64,000 bases of DNA. Origin: Ostreococcus lucimarinus. Its lineage: Eukaryota. Shown here one piece after another: positions 10,911-56,044 of this stretch. The position numbers and the translations under genes are program-made. Numbering within the stretch: the stretch's first letter is position 1; every line of letters starts with the position of its first letter. Under the pieces are notes generated by a model, which did no database searches, was not told where the DNA came from, and saw only the letters and a program-made list of their open reading frames with translations. The stretch lies in NCBI GenBank assembly GCA_000092065.1, contig CP000592.1; one strand, 5' to 3'.

Positions 10911-13900
10911 ATGACGGCGGTGAAGCGCGCGAACAGATGCGCGACCGTCGCGTTCAGGTGCGCGCGATCACCGATGCGGCGACCGCGGCGCGCGCGCGAC
11001 GCGCGACGCGTACACGCGCGCGCGAATCTTGAATGCGATTGTCCCGCGGGACGACGCGAAAAGTGACGAGGCGCGCGCGAGGCGCGCGCGAGCGCGCGAA
11101 AATCGCGGTCGAGACTGACGAACGCGCGCGTGCGCGCGCTTCACAGCCCGGATGCGCCGTTTCTGGCGACGGGGACGATGGCGGGGGCGATCGATTTGTC
11201 GTTTAGCACGACGGCGTGTTTGGAAATCTTCTCGACGGACTACGCGGATGGGGAGTTTGAGATGCCGACGCGCGGGAAGGCGGTGCCGTCGACGGAGAGG
11301 TTTCATAGGTTGGTGTGGGGGAGGGGCGCGGCGTCGGAGGAGACGCGGCTGGGGTTGATTGCCGGGGGGTTGGTGGACGGCACGGTGAACGTGTACAATC
11401 CGGCGAAGATCGTGGACGGCGCCCAGAGCGGGGCGATAATCACAAAGTTGGCCAAGCATCAGGGTGCGGTGAGGGGCTTGGACTTTAACACGTTCTCACC
11501 CAACCTGCTCGCGAGCGGGGCGGAGGATGGGGAGCTTTGTATTTGGGATTTGGCAAATCCGAACAAGCCGTCGTTGTATCCCGCGCTCAAGTCTACCTCG
11601 GGCGGCCCGAGCGCCGGGGAGGTTTCGTATTTGGCGTGGAATCATAAAGTGCAGCACATTTTGGCGTCTTCTTCGCTCAACGGTACCACGGTGGTTTGGG
11701 ATTTGAAGCGTCAGCGTCCGGTGATTTCGTTCACCGATCCGAATTCCCGCCGGCGGTGCTCGGCGTTGCAGTGGAACCCAGAGGTGGCGACCCAGCTTAT
11801 CGTCGCGAGCGACGACGATCGCTCGTGCTCGCTTCAGGTGTGGGATTTGCGGAACTCTATCTCTCCTGCGCGCGAATTCGTCGCCCATTCCAAAGGCGTG
11901 CTCGCCATGGCCTGGAACTTGCAAGATCCGTCCCTGCTGCTCACGTGCGGCAAGGACAACAGGACGCTTTGCTGGGACACCGAGGCCGGTGAGGTCATTT
12001 CCGAGCTTCCCGCGAGCGCGAACTGGAATTTCGACGTTCAATGGAGCAAGACGACGCCCGGCATCTTGTCCACATCTTCGTTCGACGGCAAGATCACCTT
12101 GCACAACTTGCAAAAGGCGGGGGCGACGGCGCAAGGTTCAGCGGACGCTCACGGCGTGAGCTCGGACTTTTCCGAACTCGCCCACCAGCAAAGCGCCGGT
12201 CCAACGATGCCGATGAAACGCGCACCGAACTGGTTGAAACGTCCTTGCGGGGCCACTTTCGGATTCGGTGGTAAGCTCGTGGCGCACGGAGCCACGCTCC
12301 AGGGTGCCCCGGCGACGCCGGGCGCCGTGACCGTGATTTCCGTCAAGAGCGAGACGACGGATGGTTTGGTGGTGAAAGAAAACAGCTCCGAGTTTGAAGA
12401 CGCCGTGAAGGGAGGAGACACGGAGGCGCTGATTAAATTTTGCGAGGCGAAGAAACGCATGGCCAAGGGTGAAGAGCACGAAGCTTGGACGTTTATGAGT
12501 ATCTTATTCACCGAGGACGCCAGGCGAGAAATGTTACGCCACCTCGAGTTTGGTGACGCCTTGGAGGCGCGCGAGAAGTCCCTCGCGGCCTTGTCGATTA
12601 AGGATACTGATGATTCGCAAGCCGATGCGTCGACGCCGGTGAGTACACCGACGTCGCCAGCGCTGCCTCCGGTCGAGGACTCTGACGCATTCTTCGACAA
12701 CCTTGGAGACGCGGCGCAACCTACGTCGCCGAAGCACATTCCGTCGCCGAAAAAACCGGCGCCGAAAAAACCGGCGCCGGTGGTTTCAAAGGCTCCACCG
12801 CCGACGGCTGCTGATTTTGAGATTCAACGCGCTTTGATTGTAGGCGATTACAAAGCCGCCGTGGACGCGTGCAAGCGCGCCGAGCGCTACGCCGACGCCC
12901 TCATCCTCGCCGCGGCTGGTGGTCCGGAACTATGGGCTGAAACCCAAGCTGCGCACATTGCGCGAGTTCCGCGCCCGTACATGCAAGTGGCCGCGGCGGT
13001 GGTCGGAAAGAACTTGTCGAATCTCGTCAAGGCGCGGCCGGTGTCGGCTTGGCGTGAGACGCTGGCGTTGTTGTGCACGTACGCCCCTGGTGATGAATGG
13101 GGTCCATTAGCGGAAGTTCTCGCCGAGGGATTGGCAAAGAGCGGAGATCATAAGTCTGCGATGCTGTGCTACGTTTGTGCGGGTAATGTGGATGCGGCTA
13201 TCAAGTACTGGCTGTCTTCACTGCCGTCGAGAAACTTTAGTCCAAAGGATTTGTACAGTGTAGTCGAGAAGGCTGTGATGATGACTCGCGCGGCGGGACA
13301 ATCGGAAGCTACGCAAGGTTTCACGAGTTTGATTACGAATTACGCGGAAATGTTGTCTTCCCAAGGTGATCTGGACAGCGCGTTAGATTACTTGGGCATG
13401 GTTCCCGGGACCCCGGGTGAAGAAGTAAACGTCTTGCGCAACAGAATTATTCGCAGCAGTATTTCCAACAAGGCGACCACGAGTGCGCCAGTCGTCGCGT
13501 CTCCGGTCTCTGCGTCGGTGGTACAGCCGTCGTATGGCGCTCCATCCACGATGTCTGCGTACCAGGCCTCGCCACCTCCGGCACAGCCATCGTCTTATGG
13601 ATCCCAAGCCGCGTACGGCGTCCCGCCGTCGATGACTTCGGCGTACAGCACCCCGGCGCCTCCGCCTCCGCCGACGACTTTCACGCCTGCGGCTATGGCG
13701 CCACCGCCAGTTTCGCAAGTTCCTCAACGAGCGCCGCAGCAACCGGCGCCGATGATACCGACGATGCCTCCGATCGATATGCAGGGTGGGTACTTTTCGG
13801 GATCATCGCCGACCCCTGCGATGCCCCCCGGGACCGCAGCGCCCCGGCCGCCGCCACAACAGGCAGCTCCCACGGGACCGCCGCCGAGACAGACCGCGTA

Positions 13901-14864
13901 CGACAGTGCGCCTGTTGAGAGCGCGTACGCCACCCCTAGTGGATACGGGGGAGGTATGAGTCAGCCAGCGCAACCGTCTGTGCCTCCGTCGATGACCGCG
14001 GCGTACAACGTCGCCGCTCAAGTCGCCGCGGGCAACATGGGCGCCCCCGCAGCACCCCCGATCGGCGGTGGTTACGGTGCGCCTCCGGCGCCGATGGCTC
14101 CGCAGCATCACCAAGCGCCACCACCAATGCCCGGAATGATGGTTCCGACTCCCATGATGCCGCAACAACAGCAGCAAATGGGCGGGCCGCCGCAACAACA
14201 GCCCTCGCGCGCACCGCCGCCGCCGCCTTCGTCCGTCGCCCCCGCTGCCTCGTTCAACCCTGCGCCCGCAACGCCGCCGCCGATCATTCCGCAACGCGTC
14301 GAGCAACCGGCGTACGGTGCGAATGCGCCTACACCGCCACCTTCGGCGCAGGCGTACGGCGCGCCGCAGCACCAGCAGCAGAGCTTCCAGCCCGGCCCGC
14401 CGCAACCGTCAACCTTTGCGCCGGCTCCGCCGCCGATGCAGCAGCAGCCGGCCGCAGCACCACCACCGCCACCTGCGGCGCCGGCAAAGCCGCAACCACC
14501 GGCGAACTGCTCCGTGGAAACCGTCGACACGAGCAAGATTTCACCCGACCTCGCGCCCGTCGCGCAGTCGCTTCGCTCGCTCTACGACGCGTGCGCCGCC
14601 GCCGCCGCCGCCCATCCAGCGAAGCGTAAAGAGATGGACGACAGCTCCAGACGACTCGGTGTTCTCCTCTGGAAGCTCAACGCCGCCGAGGTGTCCCCAT
14701 CCGTCGTCGCCAAGCTCAAATCTCTCGCCGAGGCGCTCGACACGGCGAATTTCACCGCCGCGCACGGCGTCCAAATGGCCCTCACCACCGGCGATTGGGA
14801 CGAGTGCAGCGCCTGGCTCACCGCGTTAAAGCGTCTCACGAAATTTCGATCCACGTTTCCATAG
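10911..14864 (+). CDS. SEC31: COPII coat subunit Sec31; join(10911..10957,11147..14864)
   Basis: The main ORF has the WD40 beta-propeller closely matching SEC31A (LATGT..LEIF..LIAGG..NVYNP..AKHQGAVRGLDFN..ASGAEDGELCIWDL..), then a long Pro/Ala/Gln-rich region and a conserved C-terminal helical domain. The conserved N-terminal M-x-VKRA..ATVAF|SP is encoded by a 47-nt micro-exon at ATG 10911. A 189-nt intron joins it: donor CAG|GTGCGCGCGA, ACTGAC branch point, acceptor CACAG at 11145-11146. Confidence 0.85.
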
Positions 14865-15001: not shown

Positions 15002-15850
15002 ATGACGGCCGCAGATGATGACATAGACGAGGACGCGTTGCTCTACGGCGATGTCGGTGCGTGCGCGACGCGAGCGACGACGCCCACGCGGCGCGCGCGC
15101 CGACACACAATTCTCCCGCTTAAACTTTCCCGCGCGCTCGACGCGCGCACCGCGCGAAAGACCCGACGCGGGGCGACTGACGACGACGTACGCATTTCGC
15201 ACGACCCAGACGACGACGCGCCGGTTCGATCGACGACGACGGCGACGACGGCGCGCGCGGCGGCGGCGCCGGTCAAGGCGGCCGCGGCGCCGCCGCGCAC
15301 GTCTTCTCCGAACGTCCCGGACGACGGCCGCCCGACCGCGGTCTACGTCGCCTCTCTCACGTGGTGGACCACGGACGCGGAGCTGGAGGCGATTCTCGGC
15401 GAGTTTGGCCGAGTGAAGTCGCTGACGTTTTTCGCGGACAAGGCAACCGGGAAGAGCAAAGGGTGCTGCGCGGTGGAGTTCGCGACGGCGGATGCGGCGG
15501 CGCAGTGCAAGGAGAATCTGCACGGAAAGGAGATAAATGGAAAGTCGTGCGTGGTGACGTTCGCGGAAATTCCAAAAGTGCAACCGGCGGCGGCGTCGCT
15601 CGGGCGGAACGATCCTTTGCCGCCGCCGCCGGACACGGCGTGGAAGGGGCCGATTCCGCCGGATAAGCCCGGATACGGCGGCGTTCCGTATCCAGCGCCG
15701 GTGCGTCCGCCGCCGCCGATGCACCCGCAACAGATGATGATGATGCAGCAACAGATGCGCGGCGCGCCCCCGGGAGCGCGAGCGCAGACGGGCGCGGGCG
15801 TCGGCCCGCCGCCCCCGCCGCCGCCAATCAAACGAGCGAGACAGGAATAG
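15002..15850 (+). CDS. RRM protein, CFIm68/CPSF6-like (possibly incomplete at 3' end)
   Basis: The RRM VYVASLTWWTTDAELEAILGEFG..FFADKATGKSKGCCAVEF matches the CPSF6/7 RRM (LYIGNLTWWTTDEDL..FFENRANGQSKGFALV). A Pro-rich tail follows. No RS domain is seen, so further 3' exons are possible. Confidence 0.65.
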   Translation: MTAADDDIDEDALLYGDVGACATRATTPTRRARRHTILPLKLSRALDARTARKTRRGATDDDVRISHDPDDDAPVRSTTTATTARAAAAPVKAAAAPPRTSSPNVPDDGRPTAVYVASLTWWTTDAELEAILGEFGRVKSLTFFADKATGKSKGCCAVEFATADAAAQCKENLHGKEINGKSCVVTFAEIPKVQPAAASLGRNDPLPPPPDTAWKGPIPPDKPGYGGVPYPAPVRPPPPMHPQQMMMMQQQMRGAPPGARAQTGAGVGPPPPPPPIKRARQE

Positions 15851-15983: not shown

Positions 15984-16991
15984 ATGCCCGACCCACCCCC
16001 CTCGCCTCCCGACGACGCCCCGGCGCGTCACGCGTTCAACGCCGACCGCGCCGTCGCGAGCGAGCGCGCTGAAACCGCCCGCGCGACTCCCGCGAGCGAT
16101 GTCCCAGCGTCCACCAGCCGCCTCGTCGGTTTCGCCTCGAGCACCGTCGAGCGCGTCGACGCCGCGTTCAAGGCGTCCACGGTCGGACTGATGACTCGAG
16201 AAGATTTCGTCAAGCGTCAGGACGAGATCGAGGGCGCGATGGCGAGGGAAAAGGCTGAGAAGGAGGAGGAGGCGCGAACGCGGGCCGAGGAGGTCAAGGC
16301 GAAGCGGAAGCGAAAACGGGCGACGAAGACGTCGCATAAATTATCGTTCGGCGACGAGGAATCAGACGAAGTCGCGGAGGGTGAAGAACTAGTCGTAAAT
16401 AAGGGCTTCGGGCTCGGGAAGAACCCGAACGTGAACACAGAATTTCTCCCCGACCGCGCGAGAGAGGAGGAGGAGCTTCGAGAGCGACGAGCGATAGAGG
16501 AGGAATTTCTCACCAAGTCGCGCTTGGAGAGGAACGAACCCGTGATCATCACGTATAGTTATTACGACGGCTCGCGCAGAGCCGGCGGGAAGATCAAATG
16601 CGTCAAAGGCGATACCGTGGAGGCGTTTCTCGGCAAGGTGCGCGCCGAGCTCTTGGCCGACGGCGAGCGCACCGTGCAGCGAGACATGCGTCACTGCGAC
16701 GTCTCCGGGATGATGTACGTCAAAGAAGATTTGATCATGCTCCCAGATTTAACTTTCCACGAGCTCATCACGACCAAGGCGCGCGGGAAATCCGGACCGC
16801 TGTTTCGCTTCGACGTCAAGGACGACGTTCGCCTCCGCGGCGGCGCCAACGTCGAGGTTGAAAATTCCCATCCCGGCAAGGTCATCCTCCGCTCTTGGTA
16901 CGACAAGAACAAGTCCATGTTTCCAGCGAACCGTTGGGAGGTTTTCGAGCGCGGCAAATCGTACGCCGAGGAGGGCTACCGGATCAAGTGA
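15984..16991 (+). CDS. XAP5: XAP5/FAM50 family nuclear protein
   Basis: The protein has a charged coiled N-terminus. Its C-terminus, KVILRSWYDKNKSMFPANRWEVFERGKSY, matches the FAM50A/XAP5 signature (SRSWYEKNKHIFPASRWE). Confidence 0.8.
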   Translation: MPDPPPSPPDDAPARHAFNADRAVASERAETARATPASDVPASTSRLVGFASSTVERVDAAFKASTVGLMTREDFVKRQDEIEGAMAREKAEKEEEARTRAEEVKAKRKRKRATKTSHKLSFGDEESDEVAEGEELVVNKGFGLGKNPNVNTEFLPDRAREEEELRERRAIEEEFLTKSRLERNEPVIITYSYYDGSRRAGGKIKCVKGDTVEAFLGKVRAELLADGERTVQRDMRHCDVSGMMYVKEDLIMLPDLTFHELITTKARGKSGPLFRFDVKDDVRLRGGANVEVENSHPGKVILRSWYDKNKSMFPANRWEVFERGKSYAEEGYRIK

Positions 16992-17124
16992 CTTTTCGTC
17001 CCGGTCGTCCGCACGCCGCGCCTCGCGCGACGGCGCGGTCCCGACACTAGCCCATCGCCCATCGGCGCGTAATTCACCATTCACCTCGTACACGTCTCGC
17101 GCCAACCCCTCCGCGCCTCCTCGA

Positions 17125-18561
17125 ATGGTTCGCGGTAAAGTCCTCGTCGTCGCCGGCTCCGACTCGGGCGGCGGCGCCGGCGTCCAAGCCGACGTCAAGG
17201 CGATCCTCGCCCACGGCGCCTTCGCCACGACCGCCATCACCGCGCTCACCGCTCAAAACACCACGGGCGTGCACGGCGTCCACGCCGCACCGTTGGAGTT
17301 CATCGAGGCGCAGATCGAGGCCGTGGTGACGGATCTACCGCCAGACGCGTGCAAGACGGGGATGCTGGCCAACGCGGCGACGACGCGCGCCGTCGCCGAC
17401 GCGATCGAACGACATCGATTGACCAACGTCGTCGTGGACACGGTGATGCTGGCGAAAGGCGGCGCGAGCCTGCTCGAAGCGGAGGCGCTGGAGGTGATGC
17501 GGGATCGATTGGCGCCGCTCGCGACGGTGATCACGCCAAACGTCCCGGAGGCGGCGGCGCTGCTAAACTTGAGCGAGGAAGAGTTCGTGATGGAGACGAT
17601 GGCGACGCGGGCGAAGGAGTTAGGGAAGTTAGGGTGTCAGTGGGTGTTACTTAAGGGTGGGCACGTCAAGGATGACGCGGAGATGTCGGTGGATTATTTG
17701 TACGAGGCGAACACGGGGAGGACGACGACGTTCTCGAGCGCGAGAATAGATACGAGGCACACTCACGGGACCGGGTGCACGCTCGCGAGCTCGATCGCGG
17801 CGTCGTTGGCGCAAAGGTATGACGTTCCTACGGCGGTGCATCGAGCGAAGAGGTACATCTCGGAGGCGATTCGAACGAGTCCGGGGTACGGCGCGGGACA
17901 CGGGCCGTTGAATCATTTGCCGTTTCACGCCGGCGCGGCGGCGCGTGGAAAGCGGTTCGATCCGCGATGTTTGAAACTTTATCTCGTCAGCAGTGAGGCG
18001 TTGACCATGGATAAGCTTCGACAGGCGCTCGAGGCGGGAGTGACGATTGTGCAGATGCGCGATAAGGATCCCTCGACGAGGGCCTTGATCGAACGCGCCA
18101 AGGCGATGAAGGCGGCGTGCGATGAATACGGCGTCCCGTTCATCGTCAACGATCGTGTCGACGTCGCCATCGCGTGTGACGCCGATGGTGTGCACTTGGG
18201 TCAGTCAGACATGACTTGCGCGGAGGCTCGACAAATTCTTGGTCCGAATAAATGGATCGGAGTGAGCTGTCGAGAGGTGTCTTTGGCGCGCCAAGCAAGC
18301 GCCGACGACGCCGATTACATAGGGTGCGGCGCGTGTTTCGGCACTAATTCCAAGGGTGACGCTAAAGTCATCGGCTTGGATGGTGTCGGGAAAGTTATCG
18401 CGGTAGCTCGCGAGCTTTCCTTACCAGTCGTCGCCATCGGGGGCGTCTCGCTCGAAAACGCCGCGTCTGTTCGAGCGACGGGCGCCGACGGAATAGCCGT
18501 CATTTCCGCCGTCGCCAACGCGGCGGACGTGAAAAAGGCGGTCCATAAGTTGCTGCATTAG
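17125..18561 (+). CDS. TH1: bifunctional hydroxymethylpyrimidine (phosphate) kinase / thiamine-phosphate synthase (ThiD-ThiE fusion, TH1-like)
   Basis: The N-terminal half (KVLVVAGSDSGGGAGVQADVKA..GMLANAATTRAV) is a ThiD/PfkB-type HMP-P kinase. The C-terminal half (VSSEALTMDKL..IVQMRDKD..VNDRVDVAIACDADGVHLGQSD..AIGGVS) is a ThiE TMP synthase. The first ATG in the ORF is at 17125. Confidence 0.9.
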   Translation: MVRGKVLVVAGSDSGGGAGVQADVKAILAHGAFATTAITALTAQNTTGVHGVHAAPLEFIEAQIEAVVTDLPPDACKTGMLANAATTRAVADAIERHRLTNVVVDTVMLAKGGASLLEAEALEVMRDRLAPLATVITPNVPEAAALLNLSEEEFVMETMATRAKELGKLGCQWVLLKGGHVKDDAEMSVDYLYEANTGRTTTFSSARIDTRHTHGTGCTLASSIAASLAQRYDVPTAVHRAKRYISEAIRTSPGYGAGHGPLNHLPFHAGAAARGKRFDPRCLKLYLVSSEALTMDKLRQALEAGVTIVQMRDKDPSTRALIERAKAMKAACDEYGVPFIVNDRVDVAIACDADGVHLGQSDMTCAEARQILGPNKWIGVSCREVSLARQASADDADYIGCGACFGTNSKGDAKVIGLDGVGKVIAVARELSLPVVAIGGVSLENAASVRATGADGIAVISAVANAADVKKAVHKLLH

Positions 18562-19188: not shown

Positions 19189-19930
19189 CTCCGCGACGTA
19201 TTTCGCGACGTCGGGGCGACTCCACAGCGCTCGCGCCGAATCGGGCCGAGCGGGCGTCTGCGAGCGACAACCACGTCACCGAAACCCGTCAGTCGTCTCG
19301 CAAACGCGCGCGAAACCGATAAAAACGCCTCGCGCGAGCATTCCACGACGCGCGCGTCGACCGACGACCGTCGCGCCGCGTCTGTCTCCGCGCCGCCGCC
19401 GTCGCCGCGTCGCGCCGCCGCGCGCGCGCGCGCGCGTCGCGCCACCGCCGTCGAGGCCGTCCTCCGTCCGCCCGACGCGCGACGCCCGAACGTCAAAAAC
19501 CACGATCGCCACCCATCGCCGCGTCGTCGCGTCGTTGAGAACGCCCCCGCGCGACGCGCGCCGCCTCCGAGCGTCCCGCGCGCCGCCCGCGCGTCCCCTT
19601 CGTCGCCCGCCCTCGTCGTCGCCGCGCGCGCGCACCTCGCTCGCGGTCGTCGACGGATCCATCGCGCGCGCGTCGTCCGTCGCGCCGCGCGTCGCGCGTC
19701 GCCGCGCGCGCGTCGCGCGTCGTCGCGCGTCGTCGCGTCGTCGTGTGCGCGACGGACGCCGCGCGGGTTCGCCATCGATCGCGCGCGAACCTCGACGCAT
19801 CGATCGATCGCGTCGCTCGAAACGCGTCGAAAGGCGTCGATCGCGCTCGATCGATCGCGTCGATCGCGCCATCGATCGGCATCGATCGCGAGGGCGACGG
19901 CGGGCGTCGATCGCGCCATCGATCGCGCAC

Positions 19931-20134
19931 GCGCAGGCTGGACAAAACGTAATCACGCATTTCGAGCTCATCGGCTTGACGAATGCTGAATACGTAGGAA
20001 ACTCTTTGAGGTATACCACTTAACGCGGATCCAAAGTTGAAACCACTAAAACGGCCCCAAGAGTTTCCTGTGTATTCAACGTTCGTTAAGCCTATGAGCT
20101 TGAAATGCGTGATCGCGTTTTGTCCAGCCTGCGC
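19931..20134. repeat. inverted pair of an ~85-nt dispersed element (copy F 19931..20010 forward, copy G 20058..20134 reverse), spacer about 47 nt
   Basis: GCAGGCTGGACAAAACGTAATCACGCATTTCGAGCTCATCGGCTTGACGAATGCTGAATACGTAGGAAACTCTT recurs as its reverse complement about 50 nt downstream at roughly 85% identity. It shares the GGCTGGACA..CTCATnG..(T/C)(G/A)AATACGTAG(G/A)AAAC cores with the copies at 27178..27500, 43405..43455 and 53978..54055. Confidence 0.7.
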
Positions 20135-20311
20135 TTTCGGCGGCCGCCCGTGGTTTCCGCGGTCGGTGGTCGACCTCGCCTCGAAACCGGCGCCGACGAT
20201 CGGCCGCGCGAAACGAAACCGGGCGATCGATCGATCGACGATCGATGCGCGCGCGGCGCGTCGAACGCGTCCGCACACCGCGCTCGGCGAGTGGCTTCCG
20301 ACGACGCGCGA

Positions 20312-20400
20312 CGGCCGACGGCGCGCGAATCGAGCCTGAGAACACGTAAATCGTTTGAACTTGTATCGGGGTAATACCTGCGTAAGGACTGAGCCGGCGA
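20312..20400 (+). ncRNA. candidate thiamine pyrophosphate (TPP) riboswitch aptamer in the 5' leader of the SSS transporter gene
   Basis: Read directly: CCUGAGAACACGUAAAUCGUUUGAACUUGUAUCGGGGUAAUACCUGCGUAAGGACUGAGCC. It carries the J3-2 CUGAGA, the UUUGAAC(C/U)UG segment, a P5 hairpin CGGG-GUAAUA-CCUG (consensus CUGG-AUAAUG-CCAG) and CGUAAGGA (consensus CGUAGGGA). The changes preserve pairing (CUUG with UAAG; CGGG with CCUG via G-U). The transporter ATG is about 70 nt downstream at 20468. Confidence 0.65.
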
Positions 20401-20467
20401 ACGACGCGCGAGGGGTCGCGCGAACGACGAGGACGCGGGGGTTAGGGCAAATCCCGGAGAAACGACG

Positions 20468-22339
20468 ATGGCGAACTACGGGTGGTTGTACGCGCTGATA
20501 TCGCTGTACGGGGTCGCGTCCGGCGCGGCGGCGACGTTCGCGCACCGGCGAAATAAGGCGGCGGCGAACGACGCTGGGGACGCGATGCGGAACCACTTCG
20601 GCGGCGGGAAGGGACTCGGCGGCGTCGCGCTGTTTTTTACGCTCTCGGCGTCGCTGTTTTCGGCGTATTCCGTGGAAGGGATCGCGTGGGAGGCGTGGTT
20701 TAAGGGATGGTTCGCCACGCGATGGATTCCAGCGGGCGTCGGGGTGTACATGGGATTTTTGATCATGGCGCCGCGACTGAACGCGCTCGGAAAATTGCGA
20801 GGGTATCTCACGCTGAGCGAAGTCGTCTACGACAGGTTCAGCGCGCCGAATTCTCGGCATCAACTCACGGCGCACGCGCTGCGAGTGATCACCTGGGGGT
20901 GTTTGTTGCTTCCAATCTTCTGCTACCAAATTTCGCAGTTTGTGTCGATGGGTAAAATCGTCGAGGCGTTCACCGCCGGCGCCATCTCGGAGACGGGCGG
21001 GGTGTTGATCTTTGCCTTGATCATGATCGCCGTCGAGGCCGTCGGTGGTCTTCGTGCGGTGGCGTATACGGACATCATTCAAGGATGCATGCTCATCGTC
21101 GGTTCGCTGATCTTCTTCATCGCGAGCGGGGTGGAATTCGGTGGATTGTCGCGAGCGAAGGATTACTTCGCCGCGGCGTCACCCCCCAAGTTTCAAACCA
21201 TTCCCAAAACGGACGGGTCTTGGTCCATCATATCGTACACCTCGTTCACGCTTCGCGTGTCCGTCGCGGCGACGATGTTTCCGCACCTCGCCATGCGATT
21301 GTTCGTCGCGAAGGATCGTAAAATGCTCCAACGCGGTTTGGCGGGGATGAACTTTACCTTTTTCTGGGTCCAACTCTCCACCATGATCGCCGGTTGGACC
21401 GCGGTGTACGCCCTGCGTGATGTCGCCACTGTGGCGGACATCGGAAATCAACAATCAATCTTTGGAAAACTCGCACTCCAGCTGAAGAACGCTTCGGCGT
21501 TCGGGGACTTCTCCGCGTCGCTCTTGGTTCTCGCCGCCTTCGCGGCGATGATATCCACCGCCGACTCTGGTTTGCTCGCCTTCAGTACGATGTTTGTGCG
21601 CGACATTTACCAGCCCTACGTTCAAAAAGTGTTCCCAAAAGCGCGTGTCGATGGAAACGCGCTGAAAATCGTTGGATTGGTGTCCTCCCTCGCCGCTCTC
21701 GGTGTCGGTTTGGGGCTGTCCATCGTCAACCTCCGCGAAGGCAAACCCGACATCACTGGGTTGTTCTCCATTCAAACCGTCACCCCGATTCACGCCGTTC
21801 CAGCAGTATGGGGTGGGATCCACCTTCACTGGCTCTCCGGCGAAGCCGTCCTAGCCGGTATCGTGGCTGGTGTCATCTCCGGCTTGGTCATGGTTCTGGA
21901 CACCGAGTTCAACGTCAAGCGGAACCTCGGCCTCGATGAACACTCCACGGGGTGGAACACCGCATGCTTTGCGTTTTTGATAAACGTCGGCGTCGTCATT
22001 CTCGTCACACTCTTGGAAAAGTTTGTCGTCCCCGCCGCGAAATCCGCGGCGACCGCGCAAACGAACACGCTGTTCATCGGTAAAAAAGTGGACAAGATGC
22101 TCTCCAACCCGATCCCGTGGTTCTTCATGATTTTCACCTTGCTCGCGGCGTGTCCGTTCTGGTACAAGCCCGGGAGTCAAGTGAAATACGTCGGCGACAT
22201 GGCGGCGTGGGGGTTTACGAGCTTGTTCTTTTCCTTCATCCTCGCGCTTCAAGTATCGGCGATGTACATGTATCGCTGGGAAGATTTCGTCCCCGAAGGC
22301 GAAGACGAGAAATCCGTCGACAAGGCGGGTCAGGTGTGA
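20468..22339 (+). CDS. sodium:solute symporter family (SSF/SSS) transporter, putative thiamine or thiamine-precursor transporter
   Basis: 623 aa with about 13 hydrophobic transmembrane segments and the SSF-like pattern (GGGKGLGGVAL..SAYSVEG). It is riboswitch-associated and flanked by thiamine-metabolism genes. The substrate is an inference. Confidence 0.85.
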   Translation: MANYGWLYALISLYGVASGAAATFAHRRNKAAANDAGDAMRNHFGGGKGLGGVALFFTLSASLFSAYSVEGIAWEAWFKGWFATRWIPAGVGVYMGFLIMAPRLNALGKLRGYLTLSEVVYDRFSAPNSRHQLTAHALRVITWGCLLLPIFCYQISQFVSMGKIVEAFTAGAISETGGVLIFALIMIAVEAVGGLRAVAYTDIIQGCMLIVGSLIFFIASGVEFGGLSRAKDYFAAASPPKFQTIPKTDGSWSIISYTSFTLRVSVAATMFPHLAMRLFVAKDRKMLQRGLAGMNFTFFWVQLSTMIAGWTAVYALRDVATVADIGNQQSIFGKLALQLKNASAFGDFSASLLVLAAFAAMISTADSGLLAFSTMFVRDIYQPYVQKVFPKARVDGNALKIVGLVSSLAALGVGLGLSIVNLREGKPDITGLFSIQTVTPIHAVPAVWGGIHLHWLSGEAVLAGIVAGVISGLVMVLDTEFNVKRNLGLDEHSTGWNTACFAFLINVGVVILVTLLEKFVVPAAKSAATAQTNTLFIGKKVDKMLSNPIPWFFMIFTLLAACPFWYKPGSQVKYVGDMAAWGFTSLFFSFILALQVSAMYMYRWEDFVPEGEDEKSVDKAGQV

Positions 22340-22437: not shown

Positions 22438-23262
22438 CTACTCGTAGCTTTTTAGACTCGCCAGCGCGTCAAAGAATGCCACTTGGAAAGAAGCAGGTCC
22501 GGAAAAGTTCCCTAACCGAACAACGTCAGTCGCAATCCGTCTGTACACTAGGCACGAGGCTCGCAACGCTCTCGCATTCGCTAGTCCCGATCCAGGAACC
22601 GTCGCCGCCAGGAAGGCTCCGAGGCAACAACCCGCGCCAGAAAATTTCTGCAGAATCGGCGCATCGAACTCATGAACGGCTTCGTTTCCGGGCGCACCAT
22701 CGACCCGAGTTGATCGCGGTGTGGTAACATAATCCACGCTCCCAGTCATCACAATCATCGCGCCAAGCTTTTCCGATAGTTGATTCAGCGCGTCGAAAAC
22801 GTCTTTTTCCGCGCAGTCGCCGTCGGACGATTCCGGCGTAACGCTCAAATTCGCCCCAACGCTACCGTTCACAGCAAACAACTCAATCAACGCTTCGATT
22901 TCACTTCGATTTCCCTTCACCACAGTGCGCATCGGTCGCACATCGCTCGCGTCCCGAGCGACGGCGCCGCGCCGTTCCAACCACTCCTTTACCGTTCTCC
23001 CTCTCGTCTCCAGTCCACACCCCACGGGATCGACCACGACGTTTTGCGCGCTGAGCACGGCGTTTGCGATCTCCGCCGTCGTGGGCGTGCCGAAATTCAA
23101 CACGGTCACGTCGCAGAGCGATGCGGTGAGCGCGGCTTCCTCGTAGGTGGTGCATCCCATGCACGGTTTCGCACCGACGGCGAGCACGACGTCCGCGGCT
23201 TTGGACGCCGAGCACGCGTTCATGATGAGCTGAACCTTCGGACTCGCGCGCGCGTCGTCCAT
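22438..23262 (-). CDS. thiM: hydroxyethylthiazole kinase (ThiM)
   Basis: VQLIMNACSASKAADVVLAVGAKPCMGCTTYEEAA aligns with the ThiM N-terminus (LVHSITNNVV..LALGASPVMA), and the C-terminal GAGCCLGAFLAA matches the ThiM GAGC motif region. It is convergent with the transporter gene, with about 98 nt between stops. Confidence 0.85.
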   Translation of the reverse strand: MDDARASPKVQLIMNACSASKAADVVLAVGAKPCMGCTTYEEAALTASLCDVTVLNFGTPTTAEIANAVLSAQNVVVDPVGCGLETRGRTVKEWLERRGAVARDASDVRPMRTVVKGNRSEIEALIELFAVNGSVGANLSVTPESSDGDCAEKDVFDALNQLSEKLGAMIVMTGSVDYVTTPRSTRVDGAPGNEAVHEFDAPILQKFSGAGCCLGAFLAATVPGSGLANARALRASCLVYRRIATDVVRLGNFSGPASFQVAFFDALASLKSYE

Positions 23263-26892: not shown

Positions 26893-27177
26893 CAACGCAT
26901 CGGGATACTCCGCGTTCCTGTTCGTCGTCCTTCACCGTCAGTCATCGCGTTCGTCGTCCCATCGCGCGCGCGTTCGCCGCCAATCCTCGTCGCGATTGTC
27001 GCGCCCTCGCGTCGACCCACCGTCGCGTGGGCGTCTCTCGCGCGCCGCCCGTTCCCGGAACTTCGACGCTGTACGTCTTCATCGCGCGCGCGTCGGTCGT
27101 TCGCGCCGGTCTGCCGTCCGTCGTCGCGCCGCGTCACCGCGAGTCGGCGCGGTCGACCGATGGATGTCGTTACGCGC

Positions 27178-27500
27178 GGGCTGGACACGCCGCGCGCGTG
27201 CGATTCACACTCATCGACCTAAAATTCACTAAATACGTAGAAAACGACACAAGGTGCCATTGGGTTTGCTGGCGCGGGCTGGACACGCCGCGCGCGTGCG
27301 ATTCACACTCATGGACCTAAAATTCACTAAATACGTAGAAAACGACACAAGGTTCATTGTGCATTGCTTTGCCCACGAAGTTCTCATGGGTGTCGGGTCC
27401 GCCCCGTCCCGGGCGCGGGCTGGACACGGCGCGCGCGTGCGATTCACACTCATGGACCTAAAATTCACTAAATACGTAGAAAACGACACAAGGTTCATTG
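27178..27500 (+). repeat. three tandem copies (27178, 27275, 27417) of the ~85-nt element GGGCTGGACACG(C/G)CGCGCGCGTGCGATTCACACTCAT(C/G)GACCTAAAATTCACTAAATACGTAGAAAACGACACAAGG
   Basis: Direct reading shows three near-identical copies, with periods of 97 and 142 nt and unique spacers between them. All are in forward orientation, and the last ends about 110 nt before the RPL26 ATG. This is the same family as the copies at 19931..20134, 43405..43455 and 53978..54055. Confidence 0.8.
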
Positions 27501-27612: not shown

Positions 27613-28273
27613 ATGAAGTACTCGACCTCCGTCACGAGCTCCCGTCGCAAGACGCGCAAGGCGCACTTCACCGCCCCGAGCAGTGAGCGCCGTAAAATCA
27701 TGTCCGCCCCGCTCGCGAGCGAACTCAAGGCGCAGTACGGCGCGAACGCGGTGCCGATCCGCGTGAACGACGAAGTGCGCGTGACGCGCGGGAAGTTTAA
27801 GAATCGCGAGGGGAAGGTTGAGCAGGTGTATCGCAAGAAGTGGGTGATTCACATCAAGAATATCACGCGCGATAAGGTGAACGGTACGTTTCGATGGCGT
27901 CGAGATCGCGTCGCGCGGCACGACGGGGACGAGGGCGAAGACGATGATTCGAGGAAAGCCCTAGTTAGGGTCGGCGCGCGAACGCGCGGGGACGACGGAC
28001 GGCGTCGTCGCGCGCGCCGCCGGGGAGTAGATCGATGAGGACGGGACGATGGTGACGCCTCGCGCGAGCGAACGAGAGACGCGCGAGTGGGAGACTGACC
28101 GAGCGACGAATCGTGGTTTTCGCATCGCAGGCGCGACGATCAACGTCGGCGTCGACCCGTCCAAGGTGCTCATCACCAAGCTCCACATGGATAAGGATCG
28201 CAAGGCGCTCTTGGCGCGCAAGGGTGGTGCTAAGGGCACGGACGCCGCGGACGCGATGCAAACCGTGTCTTAA
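27613..28273 (+). CDS. RPL26: 60S ribosomal protein L26 (uL24); join(27613..27883,28131..28273)
   Basis: Exon 1 ([56 protein letters not shown]) and exon 2 ([30 protein letters not shown]) match human RPL26. A 247-nt intron joins them: donor G|GTACGT, GAGACTGAC branch point, acceptor CAG at 28128-28130. Confidence 0.9.
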
Positions 28274-43265: not shown

Positions 43266-43404
43266 CCGCGCAGCCGCGCCGCCGCCGCGCGTCAATATCA
43301 TAGTCCAATCGCCTGTTAACTACGCACCCAACCCTCGAATCGTGATTCGTCCGACCCCCCCCCGACGCGCGCGCGCGCCACACCCCACGGGTCTCGCGGT
43401 TTTC

Positions 43405-43455
43405 CCACTCATGGGCTCACGCGTCACTAAATGCGCAGAAAACGACGCAAAGTTT
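43405..43455 (+). repeat. partial or diverged copy of the ~85-nt upstream element (CACTCATGGGCTCACGCGTCACTAAATGCGCAGAAAACGACGCAA)
   Basis: It shares the CACTCATGG and TCACTAAAT(A/G)CG(T/C)AGAAAACGAC(A/G)CAA cores with the 27178..27500 copies. It lies about 80 nt upstream of the RimO ATG and points toward it. Confidence 0.4.
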
Positions 43456-43531: not shown

Positions 43532-45064
43532 ATGTCGACGCCGCTCTCGACGCGCGCGCGCGCGCCGACGCGCGCGGAATCTCGGACGCGGCGTCGCGAC
43601 CGCCGAAAGACGCGCGCGACGCGAACGACGCCGCGGTCGATCGCGGAACCGTCGGAAACCGGAACCGGCGGCGCCGACGCGGCGAGCGATTCGCGACGGA
43701 AGCGCGTCTCGATGGTCAGCCTGGGGTGCCCGAAGAACACGGTGGACGGGGAGGTGATGCTGGGGGATCTGCACGGCGCGGGATTCGACGTGACGGACGA
43801 TCACGAGAGCGCGGACGCGATCGTCATCAACTCGTGCGGATTCGTGGAGGACGCGAAGAACGAGAGCGTGGAGGCGATCCTGGAGGCGTCGCAGCTGGCG
43901 AACGGGAGCAAGAAGATCATCGTGACGGGATGCTTGGCGCAGCGGTACGCGAACGATCTGGCGAACGAGCTGCCGGAGGCGGACGTGATCGTGGGGTTTG
44001 AGAATTACGCCAATCTGCCGAAAACCGTGGGGGGGTTGCTCGGCGTGGAGACGAACGGGTTGATCGCGCCGCAGCAAGCGCGGGTGCAGGTGGGAGGGGC
44101 GAGCCCGCCGTTTAGAGAAGAGATAAAACGGTTGAGGATCACGCCGAGACACACGGCGTATCTGAGAGTGGCGGAAGGGTGCGATCACAAGTGCACTTTT
44201 TGCGCGATTCCGAGCTTTCGCGGGAGGTTTCGGTCCAAGCCGTGGCAGTCAATCATCGACGAAGCGAAGGCGTTGGCGGATTCGGGAGTTCGTGAGCTTA
44301 ACTTGATCGCAGAAGATACGAATCAGTGGGGCATCGACTTGAGAGCGAGCGATGGACGCGGGTTGGCCGAGCTCTTGTACGCGCTCGCCGAGGTCGAGGG
44401 CATCGAGTGGATGCGCATCCTGTACGCGTATCCGTCGTACTTTTCCGACGAGCTCATCCGAGCCATCGCGGATGTTCCGCAAGTGTGCAAATATATCGAT
44501 ATTCCGCTTCAGCACATCACAAACTTGTCGCTATTGCGAATGAATAGGCCGCCTCGGCAGCACACGGAGGATTTGTTGTACAAGCTGCGAGACCGAATTC
44601 CGGATTTAGCGCTTCGCACAACCTTCATCAGCGGATTCCCGGGAGAAACCGAGGAAGAACACGAAGAACTAATGCAATTTTGCCGTGATTTCAAATTTGA
44701 ACGACTCGGTGCGTTTGCGTACAGCGAAGAGGATGGTACGCCGGCGATGGAATACCCGGACCAAGTTCCGGAGGAAATTCGCGCGATTCGTCGCGACCAG
44801 CTCGTGTCGCAACAGCAAGAGATCAGCGAAGACTTTGCGATGAGCCGCGTCGGAAAGGACGTGGATGTGTTAATAGATAATTGGGACGAAGATATGCAGG
44901 CGTTCATCGGGCGTACCACGCTCGAGGCGCCGGATATTGACCCCGTGGTTTTCGTCACCGAGGACAAGTCCAAGGGCTTGCCTCCGATCGAACCGGGACA
45001 AATGCGAAGGTGCAACGTCATCGGATCGAGTCTTTTCGATCTCGAGGCGCAACCCATCATGTAA
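43532..45064 (+). CDS. rimO: radical-SAM methylthiotransferase, RimO/MiaB family (ribosomal protein S12 methylthiotransferase-like), organelle-targeted
   Basis: The MTTase N-domain (VSLGCPKNTVDGEVMLG..ADAIVINSCGFVEDAKNES), the radical-SAM CxxxCxxC (CDHKCTFCAIP) and a C-terminal TRAM-like region are present. The Arg-rich N-terminal extension suggests a transit peptide. Confidence 0.85.
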   Translation: MSTPLSTRARAPTRAESRTRRRDRRKTRATRTTPRSIAEPSETGTGGADAASDSRRKRVSMVSLGCPKNTVDGEVMLGDLHGAGFDVTDDHESADAIVINSCGFVEDAKNESVEAILEASQLANGSKKIIVTGCLAQRYANDLANELPEADVIVGFENYANLPKTVGGLLGVETNGLIAPQQARVQVGGASPPFREEIKRLRITPRHTAYLRVAEGCDHKCTFCAIPSFRGRFRSKPWQSIIDEAKALADSGVRELNLIAEDTNQWGIDLRASDGRGLAELLYALAEVEGIEWMRILYAYPSYFSDELIRAIADVPQVCKYIDIPLQHITNLSLLRMNRPPRQHTEDLLYKLRDRIPDLALRTTFISGFPGETEEEHEELMQFCRDFKFERLGAFAYSEEDGTPAMEYPDQVPEEIRAIRRDQLVSQQQEISEDFAMSRVGKDVDVLIDNWDEDMQAFIGRTTLEAPDIDPVVFVTEDKSKGLPPIEPGQMRRCNVIGSSLFDLEAQPIM

Positions 45065-53701: not shown

Positions 53702-53977
53702 GAACCGCGCCTCGCGCGCGCGTCCGCGTCCGCGCCTCGCGCGCGCGACCGCCGCCTTCGTTCGCGCGCGCGCGCCTTCGCACGCGCGACGCCGCGACGG
53801 TCGACCGACCGACGATCGCGCGTCGCGTCGTCCCGCGTCGCGTCGGCGCGCGACGCGACGGCGACCGGCGATCCGCGACCCGCGGTTTACACACGCCTCG
53901 AGAGATCCGCTTCGATGGGCGAAACGGGGACTCGTATACGGAGCGGAGGCCCGCGCGCGCGCGGCGACCGCCCGAGG

Positions 53978-54055
53978 CGCGGGCTGGACCCCGCGCGCGC
54001 GTGGGTGCCGCACACATAGGTTTAAAAATCACTGAATACGTAGAAAACCGTTCCA
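53978..54055 (+). repeat. diverged copy of the ~85-nt upstream element (GGGCTGGACCCCGCGCGCGCGTGGGTGCCGCACACATAGGTTTAAAAATCACTGAATACGTAGAAAACCG)
   Basis: It has the same cores and order as the 27178..27500 copies. It lies about 200 nt upstream of the polyubiquitin ATG, points toward it, and sits in the divergent bL27/polyubiquitin intergenic region. Confidence 0.5.
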
Positions 54056-54107
54056 GGTGCGTCGACCCCGCGGCCCGGCCATCGCAATCCACCCCCCCTG
54101 TTTTTGA

Positions 54108-55756
<1,649 letters not shown>

Positions 55757-56044
55757 ATACTTACATTTAGTCCCACGTCCGCTTCGGCGATCTCCGCCGC
55801 GTTTGCTATTCTGAAAAGATTTCTGCGGGCGAGGCGTTGAGAACGTGAAGCGCTTCAGCAGACGAACGACACGAAAGATGTACCGATTCTTGTTTTAGCC
55901 ATTACCATTACCATACACACATGTAACGACAGTACCAAAAGCTGTACGCCACTTTATGTTCCTAATCACGTCTTATCGAATCCTCGAGCGCGAGAGGTGC
56001 GCGAGCGCGCTCCGTCCCGCCCTTCACACGCGGCCCCGCGAGTC

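Follow-up and report, generated by a model that had tools for sequence, protein, structure and literature searches.

An inverted pair of dispersed repeat units between the divergent TenA and riboswitch-controlled transporter genes of Ostreococcus lucimarinus

What kind of element is a ~200-base hairpin-forming sequence that lies between two divergent thiamine-related genes of the green picoalga Ostreococcus lucimarinus, a short distance upstream of a metabolite-sensing RNA? Ostreococcus genomes are among the most compact of free-living eukaryotes and are usually described as nearly repeat-free outside two outlier chromosomes. A preliminary description of the locus had proposed a MITE-like insertion, a bidirectional promoter built from two unidirectional modules, or a source of hairpin RNA. 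The stretch of DNA that we analysed (the window) comprises 64 kb with a GC content of 60.7% and belongs to O. lucimarinus CCE9901, to which three proteins encoded around the hairpin match exactly. As O. lucimarinus is a eukaryote, the logic of bacterial promoters and terminators is not applicable here.

The hairpin-forming sequence lies within a 1279-nt spacer that separates a gene of the TenA/thiaminase-2 family (XP_001420767, Pfam PF03070; 18601-19188, minus strand) from the divergently transcribed SSSF gene (XP_001420601, Pfam PF00474; 20468-22339, plus strand), which encodes a sodium:solute symporter of the SSF/SSS family and is the riboswitch-controlled gene of the locus. The position in a shared upstream region of divergent genes is thus as previously described. 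A ThiD/ThiE fusion is encoded at 16858-18561 on the TenA side, and hydroxyethylthiazole kinase (XP_001420768, an exact CCE9901 match) at 22438-23262 on the minus strand beyond the transporter. In all Ostreococcus, SSSF carries a TPP riboswitch in its 5'UTR and is collocated with TH1, the ThiD/ThiE fusion, and THIM (PMC4260697, McRose et al. 2014); the locus in the window is this thiamine-salvage cluster.

The TPP riboswitch aptamer was located at 20301-20406 on the plus strand, in the 5' leader of the transporter gene. It matches the full length of the Rfam model RF00059 (29.6 bits, E = 0.0012) and contains the CUGAGA and ACCUG boxes; its score is below the gathering score of 54.3, so that standard Rfam annotation misses it. 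The aptamer core (20329-20388) is ~80% conserved in four Ostreococcus lineages. The aptamer is a neighbour of the inverted pair and lies outside the repeat: 167 nt of sequence, with a GC-rich segment, separate it from the right arm, which places the pair upstream of the aptamer as had been claimed, at a distance slightly shorter than the earlier figure of about 180 nt. On the other side, a low-complexity CG-repeat spacer of ~700 nt (19240-19925, 65-93% GC) lies between TenA and the pair. Its GC content reaches 80-93% at 19330-19760, where gene callers put spurious ORFs of 230-365 aa, and a similar GC-rich tract is found in the Ostreococcus-like lineage L027. One metagenome contig (L080, 1-2305) matches window positions 15277 to ~19740; beyond that point it leads not to the pair and the transporter but into an unrelated gene that encodes a LON substrate-binding domain. 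Either the contig is a chimera, misassembled within the CG-repeat tract, or the DNA is rearranged.

The ~200-base hairpin-forming sequence is real. A repeat search returned two arms of 81 nt each (19926-20006 and 20059-20139), separated by 52 nt and with 86% complementarity; the outer ends of perfect pairing lie at 19931 and 20134, so the whole pair measures 204 nt. When the arms are delimited by a sequence profile instead, the left unit occupies 19931-20015 on the plus strand (nhmmer E = 2e-21) and the right unit 20049-20134 on the minus strand (E = 2e-20), which leaves a spacer of 33 nt (20016-20048) made up of the divergent 3' tails of both units around a central GGATCC (20027-20032). The account of two opposed copies about 85% identical is therefore borne out, as is their separation, with 52 nt (or 33 nt by the profile units) in place of the ~47 nt given before. 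The 5' end of the left unit (GCGCAGGCTGGACAAAAC) faces outward and the unit points to the transporter, while the right unit points to TenA; this arrangement had been termed crossed, correctly when compared with the way in which other copies of the family face genes. The window contains three occurrences of the terminal 19-mer, GCGCAGGCTGGACAAAACG, where 0.01 would be expected. Every other inverted repeat of at least 35 nt in the 64 kb is CG low-complexity sequence; among the long inverted repeats, the pair alone is free of low complexity. It also constitutes the only AT-rich island of the spacer, with 40-46% GC against 65-93% GC in the rest.

The potential for a long stem, part of the earlier account, was evident from folding. 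The predicted RNA fold of 19920-20145 has an energy of -133.5 kcal/mol, compared with -61.4 +/- 4.5 kcal/mol for 200 shuffled sequences (z = -16.1), none of which was as stable. The minus strand folds equally well (-135.0 kcal/mol), and folding of the pair as DNA gives -73.9 kcal/mol (z = -13.2).

Each arm proved to be a copy of a dispersed, non-coding repeat unit, in agreement with the earlier view that both arms represent an upstream element found repeatedly in this DNA. BLAST of the region against the window revealed a third, incomplete copy near 10.8 kb, and a profile made from the arms and rebuilt with the new matches recovered 8 copies at 5 sites in the 64-kb window; about 12 further sites were found in metagenomes (see below). 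The unit is ~85 nt long, or up to ~115 nt with its tail. It has a sharp 5' end, GC.GGCTGGAC(AAAAC), followed at fixed spacing by CTCAT, CTAAAT and AATACGTAG(A/G)AAAC, and similarity decays after ~85 nt. Terminal inverted repeats are absent from the single unit. Inspection by eye for C/D or H/ACA boxes found none, and a snoRNA reading of the unit was rejected. A downstream motif, GACSGTTCAYGAC, is common to a few loci and to a 70-nt repeat unit of O. tauri, and it is not enriched in the window.

Besides the pair, the window contains a solo copy on the minus strand (10766-10850), three tandem copies on the plus strand (27174-27258, 27272-27358 and 27413-27499) upstream of the ribosomal protein gene RPL26 (ATG at 27613), a diverged copy (43390-43455, plus strand, nhmmer E = 1e-6) 77 nt upstream of a radical-SAM gene (MiaB/CDKAL1-like by Pfam, 43532-45064), and a copy (53977-54062, plus strand) upstream of a polyubiquitin gene. 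The 5' end of the solo copy is turned toward a Sec31-like gene (11130-14864), and the copy points to a tandem array of 11.7 copies of a 38-nt unit (10219-10669), for which a 76-nt period with 96% matches is also seen; an ORF that covers this array (9854-10660, minus strand) has low GC3 and no Pfam match. At the polyubiquitin gene, the 228-nt period repeated 4.6 times with 98% identity (54712-55758) is the coding repeat itself; judging by the ORF structure around 54114-54740, the first ubiquitin unit may be preceded by an intron or a leader.

The family extends well beyond the window. A scan of JGI metagenome contigs with the pattern GGCTGGACN{40,50}AATACGTAGRAAAC returned 41 loci, about half of which map onto the window at 99% identity, the remainder representing other sites. 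Taken together, the window and these 41 loci contain ~17 distinct family sites, ~12 of them beyond the window, in the O. lucimarinus complex. Neighbouring genes fall into 90% clusters with the CCE9901 proteins XP_001422256 (heme oxygenase), XP_001419396 (RBM39-like) and XP_001416504, and the widely separated accession numbers of neighbour proteins suggest that the family is spread over several chromosomes. One or two units also precede the heme oxygenase gene in contigs whose encoded protein is identical to that of CCE9901. The genes near copies are functionally unrelated (RPL26, polyubiquitin, heme oxygenase, RBM39-like, bZIP and radical SAM). Stretches of 80 nt are identical between the heme oxygenase site and a site upstream of an uncharacterised 173-aa protein. 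Two neighbour proteins of 173 aa were considered as a single gene with an inverted array and turned out to be unrelated. Six matches to a 17-mer in viral contigs were attributed to chance, being matches to the 17-mer only; two family patterns gave no match in viral contigs, and no link to prasinoviruses emerged. No description of the family was found in the literature on repeats and promoters, and a search with the sequence string returned nothing relevant.

Direct tandem arrays of 2-3 units with periods of 98-141 nt are common, and many contigs end at units. The RPL26 array, with three units in the window (27174-27499), has one, two or three units across strains (L047, L059-L061, L067, L072), and the polyubiquitin site (53977-54062) has one or two copies depending on the strain (L062). 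These copy number differences look like polymorphism by unequal exchange. The family can be classed as a short interspersed intergenic repeat: its homologous copies occupy several unlinked loci, and their number is polymorphic. In a 95%-identical relative (L041 4557-4963 and L043 116-522), a 400-nt spacer contains a unit and a second box-1-like sequence, GGCAGGCTGGAAAAAC; CCE9901 has an unrelated 100-nt spacer without a unit at the matching site (window 5161-5261). This sole case of presence and absence is a replaced spacer from which neither boundaries nor a target-site duplication can be read, so no clean empty site was obtained.

Most copies point to a gene start that lies 10-150 nt from the last unit. 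As most sites are located between divergent genes, orientation is informative at few of them, and the unit of L041/L043 faces away from the nearest start. At the heme oxygenase locus (L034, L046, L055, L064, L084-L086), the 20-50 nt directly 3' of the unit, after ...CTCGACGAGA, are wholly strain-specific in flanks that are otherwise near identical; such variability at the edge could reflect repeated breakage and repair, or gain and loss of arrays. In one subfamily, GTAAGT or GTAAGC stands before the unit, and the ends of many units read AG|GT (L034, L054, L066, L071, L074, L042/L073). These sequences resemble splice sites, and some copies of the family could be 5'UTR introns; both arms of the pair lack the GT site.

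How the pair came to be inverted can be judged from the similarity of its arms. Left and right arms are 86% identical, and neither exceeds 79% identity to any other copy of the family; being closest to each other, they are sister copies. This indicates that the pair probably arose as a local tail-to-tail inverted duplication of one unit, or else that its arms have since been homogenised. In the resulting layout the 5' ends are outward and the 3' tails meet at the central GGATCC. In one haplotype (L040) a conversion tract makes the left arm resemble the right one, and another (L014) has a 4-nt insertion in the spacer (20016-20048). All O. lucimarinus-type contigs that span the locus carry the pair (~30 contigs from many samples, with 17 distinct 300-nt haplotypes). 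Variation in this region between strains is ~1% and is clustered at 20092-20094, the arms being ~99% conserved. The right flank is joined to the left flank in L001/L015 (2453-2490), L019 (1877-1904) and L049 (1-80), as if the entire ~240-nt module had been tandemly duplicated in some strains; this suggestion carries the reservation that both scaffolds (L001/L015 and L019) contain 100-N gaps. Short Logan/JGI contig ends (L075-L077, L083) were considered as possible RNA ends and discarded as assembly breaks: they coincide with SNP clusters or lie within the repeat, and the neighbouring gene is present on the contigs as well.

No target-site duplication was found at the symmetric boundaries of the pair, whose flanks read ...gcgcac on the left and tttcgg... 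on the right. The sole symmetric match between the flanks is the palindromic GCGC, which is part of the conserved 5' end of the family. Nor was a second inverted pair present among the ~17 sites of the window and the 41 metagenome loci; elsewhere the units are solo or in direct tandem. The pair thus lacks two defining features of a MITE, a target-site duplication and recurrence of the inverted form (seen at one of ~17 loci), and the MITE-like label proposed for it at the outset is not supported.

At this spacer, the aptamer core (window 20329-20388) is the only part that can be aligned with O. tauri and three other Ostreococcus-like lineages. No long inverted repeat was found in the spacer of these four lineages and no members of the family were detected in them at permissive thresholds; 22 kb of syntenic O. 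tauri sequence, including the region upstream of RPL26, contained no family copy. An nhmmer search of the islands of the other lineages with a profile of 28 sequences yielded no match to the pair even at E <= 100, and a similarity to CTAGACAAAAT in L023 was judged to be due to chance. The family appears, on these comparisons, to be specific to the O. lucimarinus lineage. The notion of an insertion is supported only loosely, in that both the pair and the family are absent from the orthologous spacers; the spacers are, however, unalignable outside the aptamer, and a clean empty site is lacking. The proximal region of RPL26 in O. lucimarinus still resembles its O. tauri counterpart, which is without the element.

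Each lineage nevertheless possesses an AT-richer island at the same relative position, ~330-670 nt upstream of the transporter ATG and followed by a GC-rich segment and the aptamer. The island of O. tauri consists of 5.0 tandem copies of a 70-nt unit with 98% identity (L021 2826-3174, the same as L088 17496-17844), a unit that was not found elsewhere in the 22 kb of synteny. The island of L027 has 2.2 tandem copies of an 82-nt unit, and the repeats in that of L023 (31-45% GC) are all short, at 14-23 nt. The O. lucimarinus island coincides exactly with the inverted pair. The other islands are unrelated to it in sequence and are built of repeats in two of the three lineages.

A transcript across both arms could in principle form a long stem, and the arms were therefore examined for signs of function as RNA. 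Among the 86 positions of the arm pairing, 72 are Watson-Crick pairs; the mismatches comprise six that are G.U on the plus strand, three that are G.U on the minus strand and five others. Neither strand is favoured by the G.U mismatches, and SNPs in the population both restore and break pairs. RNAalifold applied to 18 diverse units produced a consensus fold of only -1.76 kcal/mol with no covarying pairs, from which we conclude that the unit is not a structured RNA. Searching the whole window against Rfam at the gathering threshold returned no match; a permissive search (E <= 10) of 19700-20600 returned only the weak TPP match and chance matches to miRNAs and sRNAs in the CG-rich flank, with the arms unmatched. 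A loss of RNAi genes is to be expected in O. lucimarinus, and no small-RNA machinery is expected in the genus. For O. tauri, the loss of the RNAi genes has been reported (PMC9871001). With no G.U bias between the arms, no conserved structure of the unit and this reported loss, the suggestion of a source of hairpin RNA finds no support. Nor is the hairpin likely to belong to the sensing RNA; unlike the aptamer, it is not conserved between species. A functional hairpin RNA is a less likely identity for the pair than a piece of promoter DNA or a passive repeat.

Several explanations of the pair compete. A functional hairpin RNA, in which a transcript over both arms would form a stem of 80 bp and yield small RNAs or a structured leader or terminator influencing the riboswitch mRNA, would account for the high predicted stability of the stem on either strand and for its position upstream of a metabolite-sensing leader. 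We nevertheless consider it very unlikely: wobble pairs show no strand-specific bias (6 versus 3), arm SNPs disrupt pairs as well as restoring them, single units have neither a conserved structure nor an Rfam match, RNAi genes are reported to be lost in O. tauri (PMC9871001), the aptamer lies 167 nt downstream beyond a GC-rich segment, and other Ostreococcus species regulate the same riboswitch gene without a hairpin. A true MITE, transposed into the spacer as a unit with 81-nt terminal inverted repeats, is improbable to the same high degree. Its size of 204 nt, its AT-richness, the absence of coding capacity, the long terminal inverted repeats and the restriction to one lineage are what such an element would present; yet the only candidate for a target-site duplication is the palindromic GCGC from the 5' end of the family, the inverted layout occurs at 1 of ~17 family sites, and the arms share derived features seen in no other copy, as expected for a duplication in place. 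Fainter still is the likelihood of a DNA cruciform or boundary, that is, a palindrome that extrudes under negative supercoiling and serves as an insulator, a hotspot of replication or recombination, or a protein-binding structure. The DNA hairpin is strongly favoured over shuffled sequences (z = -13) and lies between divergent genes, and the suggested tandem duplication of the whole pair in some scaffolds hints at local instability. Against this, extrusion is disfavoured by the 52-nt spacer and by the 14% of mismatched positions, the repeats that other species carry here are direct tandem repeats and not palindromes, and both scaffolds with an extra copy contain 100-N gaps.

A more serious competitor is the view that the repeat is selfish and neutral: the family would be a small non-autonomous element, mobile or spread by recombination, and the pair an accidental inverted duplication with no role in expression; such elements would build up between genes, since a compact genome tolerates them nowhere else. 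This explanation is quite possible, though we lean against it. It fits the high similarity of copies at unrelated genes, including the identical 80-nt stretches, the variation of copy number between strains, the presence of a unit in the 95%-identical relative where CCE9901 has none, the hypervariable junction beside the element at the heme oxygenase locus, the many contigs that end at the element, the 14% divergence of the arms without a compensatory pattern, and the absence of the family from O. tauri. It is less easily reconciled with the occurrence of the pair in every haplotype examined and its good conservation between strains, with its coincidence with an AT-rich repeat island whose position is conserved in all lineages, with the conserved boxes at fixed spacing, or with the majority of copies facing a gene start. 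Hallmarks of transposition are also wanting, as there is no target-site duplication and the single unit has no terminal inverted repeats. The reading that we tentatively favour, with confidence just short of even, is that the pair may act at the DNA level, as an AT-rich promoter or regulatory island of the divergent TenA gene, the transporter gene, or both.

Within this promoter reading, the idea of two unidirectional modules appears plausible: the pair is the only AT-rich island of the spacer and a repeat island occupies the same position in other species. Each unit would be a directional module that fires in its own 5'->3' direction, supplying a TATA-like sequence (TAAATAC or TGAATAC) ~29 nt before its 3' edge and an ACGT-core site, TACGTA. 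Transcription from the left unit would run rightward across the right unit and give the riboswitch-transporter mRNA; that from the right unit would run leftward across the left unit and give the TenA mRNA. Each mRNA would then carry at most one arm, and no 80-bp RNA stem would form; the palindrome would have come about incidentally, when a module was duplicated in inverted orientation. Several considerations weigh against such promoters. The leaders that they imply, ~430 nt for the transporter and ~850 nt for TenA, would be long for Ostreococcus, and the native RPL26 promoter may be independent of the element. In addition, one copy of the family faces away from the nearest gene start, and a neutral selfish repeat would yield the same sequence patterns.

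A bolder form of the promoter reading, which we regard as speculative and rather unlikely, would see in the units species-specific portable promoter cassettes that copy themselves before unrelated genes. The island would then be rebuilt in each species while the riboswitch stays fixed, and the pair of O. lucimarinus would be a convergent arrangement. If this were true, the promoters of the two divergent genes would each fire through the other, and TenA and the transporter could be coupled via transcriptional interference or a short antisense overlap. A repeat family that is located before housekeeping genes such as RPL26 and polyubiquitin, and that makes up the only AT-rich island upstream of a riboswitch-controlled vitamin-B1 transporter gene, would help to explain promoter turnover in compact genomes and would show which sequence to use or to avoid in algal expression constructs. 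Should the pair prove to be neutral, the finding would be an ordinary one. The account of the riboswitch itself is unchanged by the pair.

Among known systems, MITEs resemble the pair in being short (here 204 nt), non-coding and AT-richer than their surroundings (40-46% GC against 60.7% for the window), with terminal inverted repeats (81 nt, 86% complementary), and in their lineage-specific occurrence in intergenic DNA close to genes. Unlike a MITE, the pair has no target-site duplication and its inverted structure exists at one locus only; what is dispersed is the single arm, itself free of terminal inverted repeats, and the two arms probably arose by duplication in place. Hairpin-RNA or miRNA-like loci derived from inverted duplications share with the pair a long, near-perfect predicted stem but differ in that the pair shows no strand bias in wobble pairs. 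The introner elements of Micromonas are likewise short, lineage-specific, sense-oriented repeats of Mamiellophyceae, and some copies of the family are preceded by GTAAGT and end in AG|GT; family copies, however, lie in intergenic or leader DNA rather than in coding sequence, and the arms of the pair have no GT 5' splice site. The SSSF/SSSP TPP riboswitch of Mamiellophyceae (PMC4260697) is present at this very locus, where the aptamer (20301-20406) precedes SSSF in the company of TH1 and ThiM, whereas the pair, 167 nt upstream, is not conserved in other riboswitch-bearing species. TE-derived or 'mobile' promoter modules differ from the family described here in that at least one of its copies faces away from the nearest gene and its units are putative promoters. 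They resemble it in that near-identical units of ~85 nt stand upstream of unrelated genes, mostly facing them, with a TATA-like box and an ACGT core at fixed spacing and with a tandem copy number that varies.
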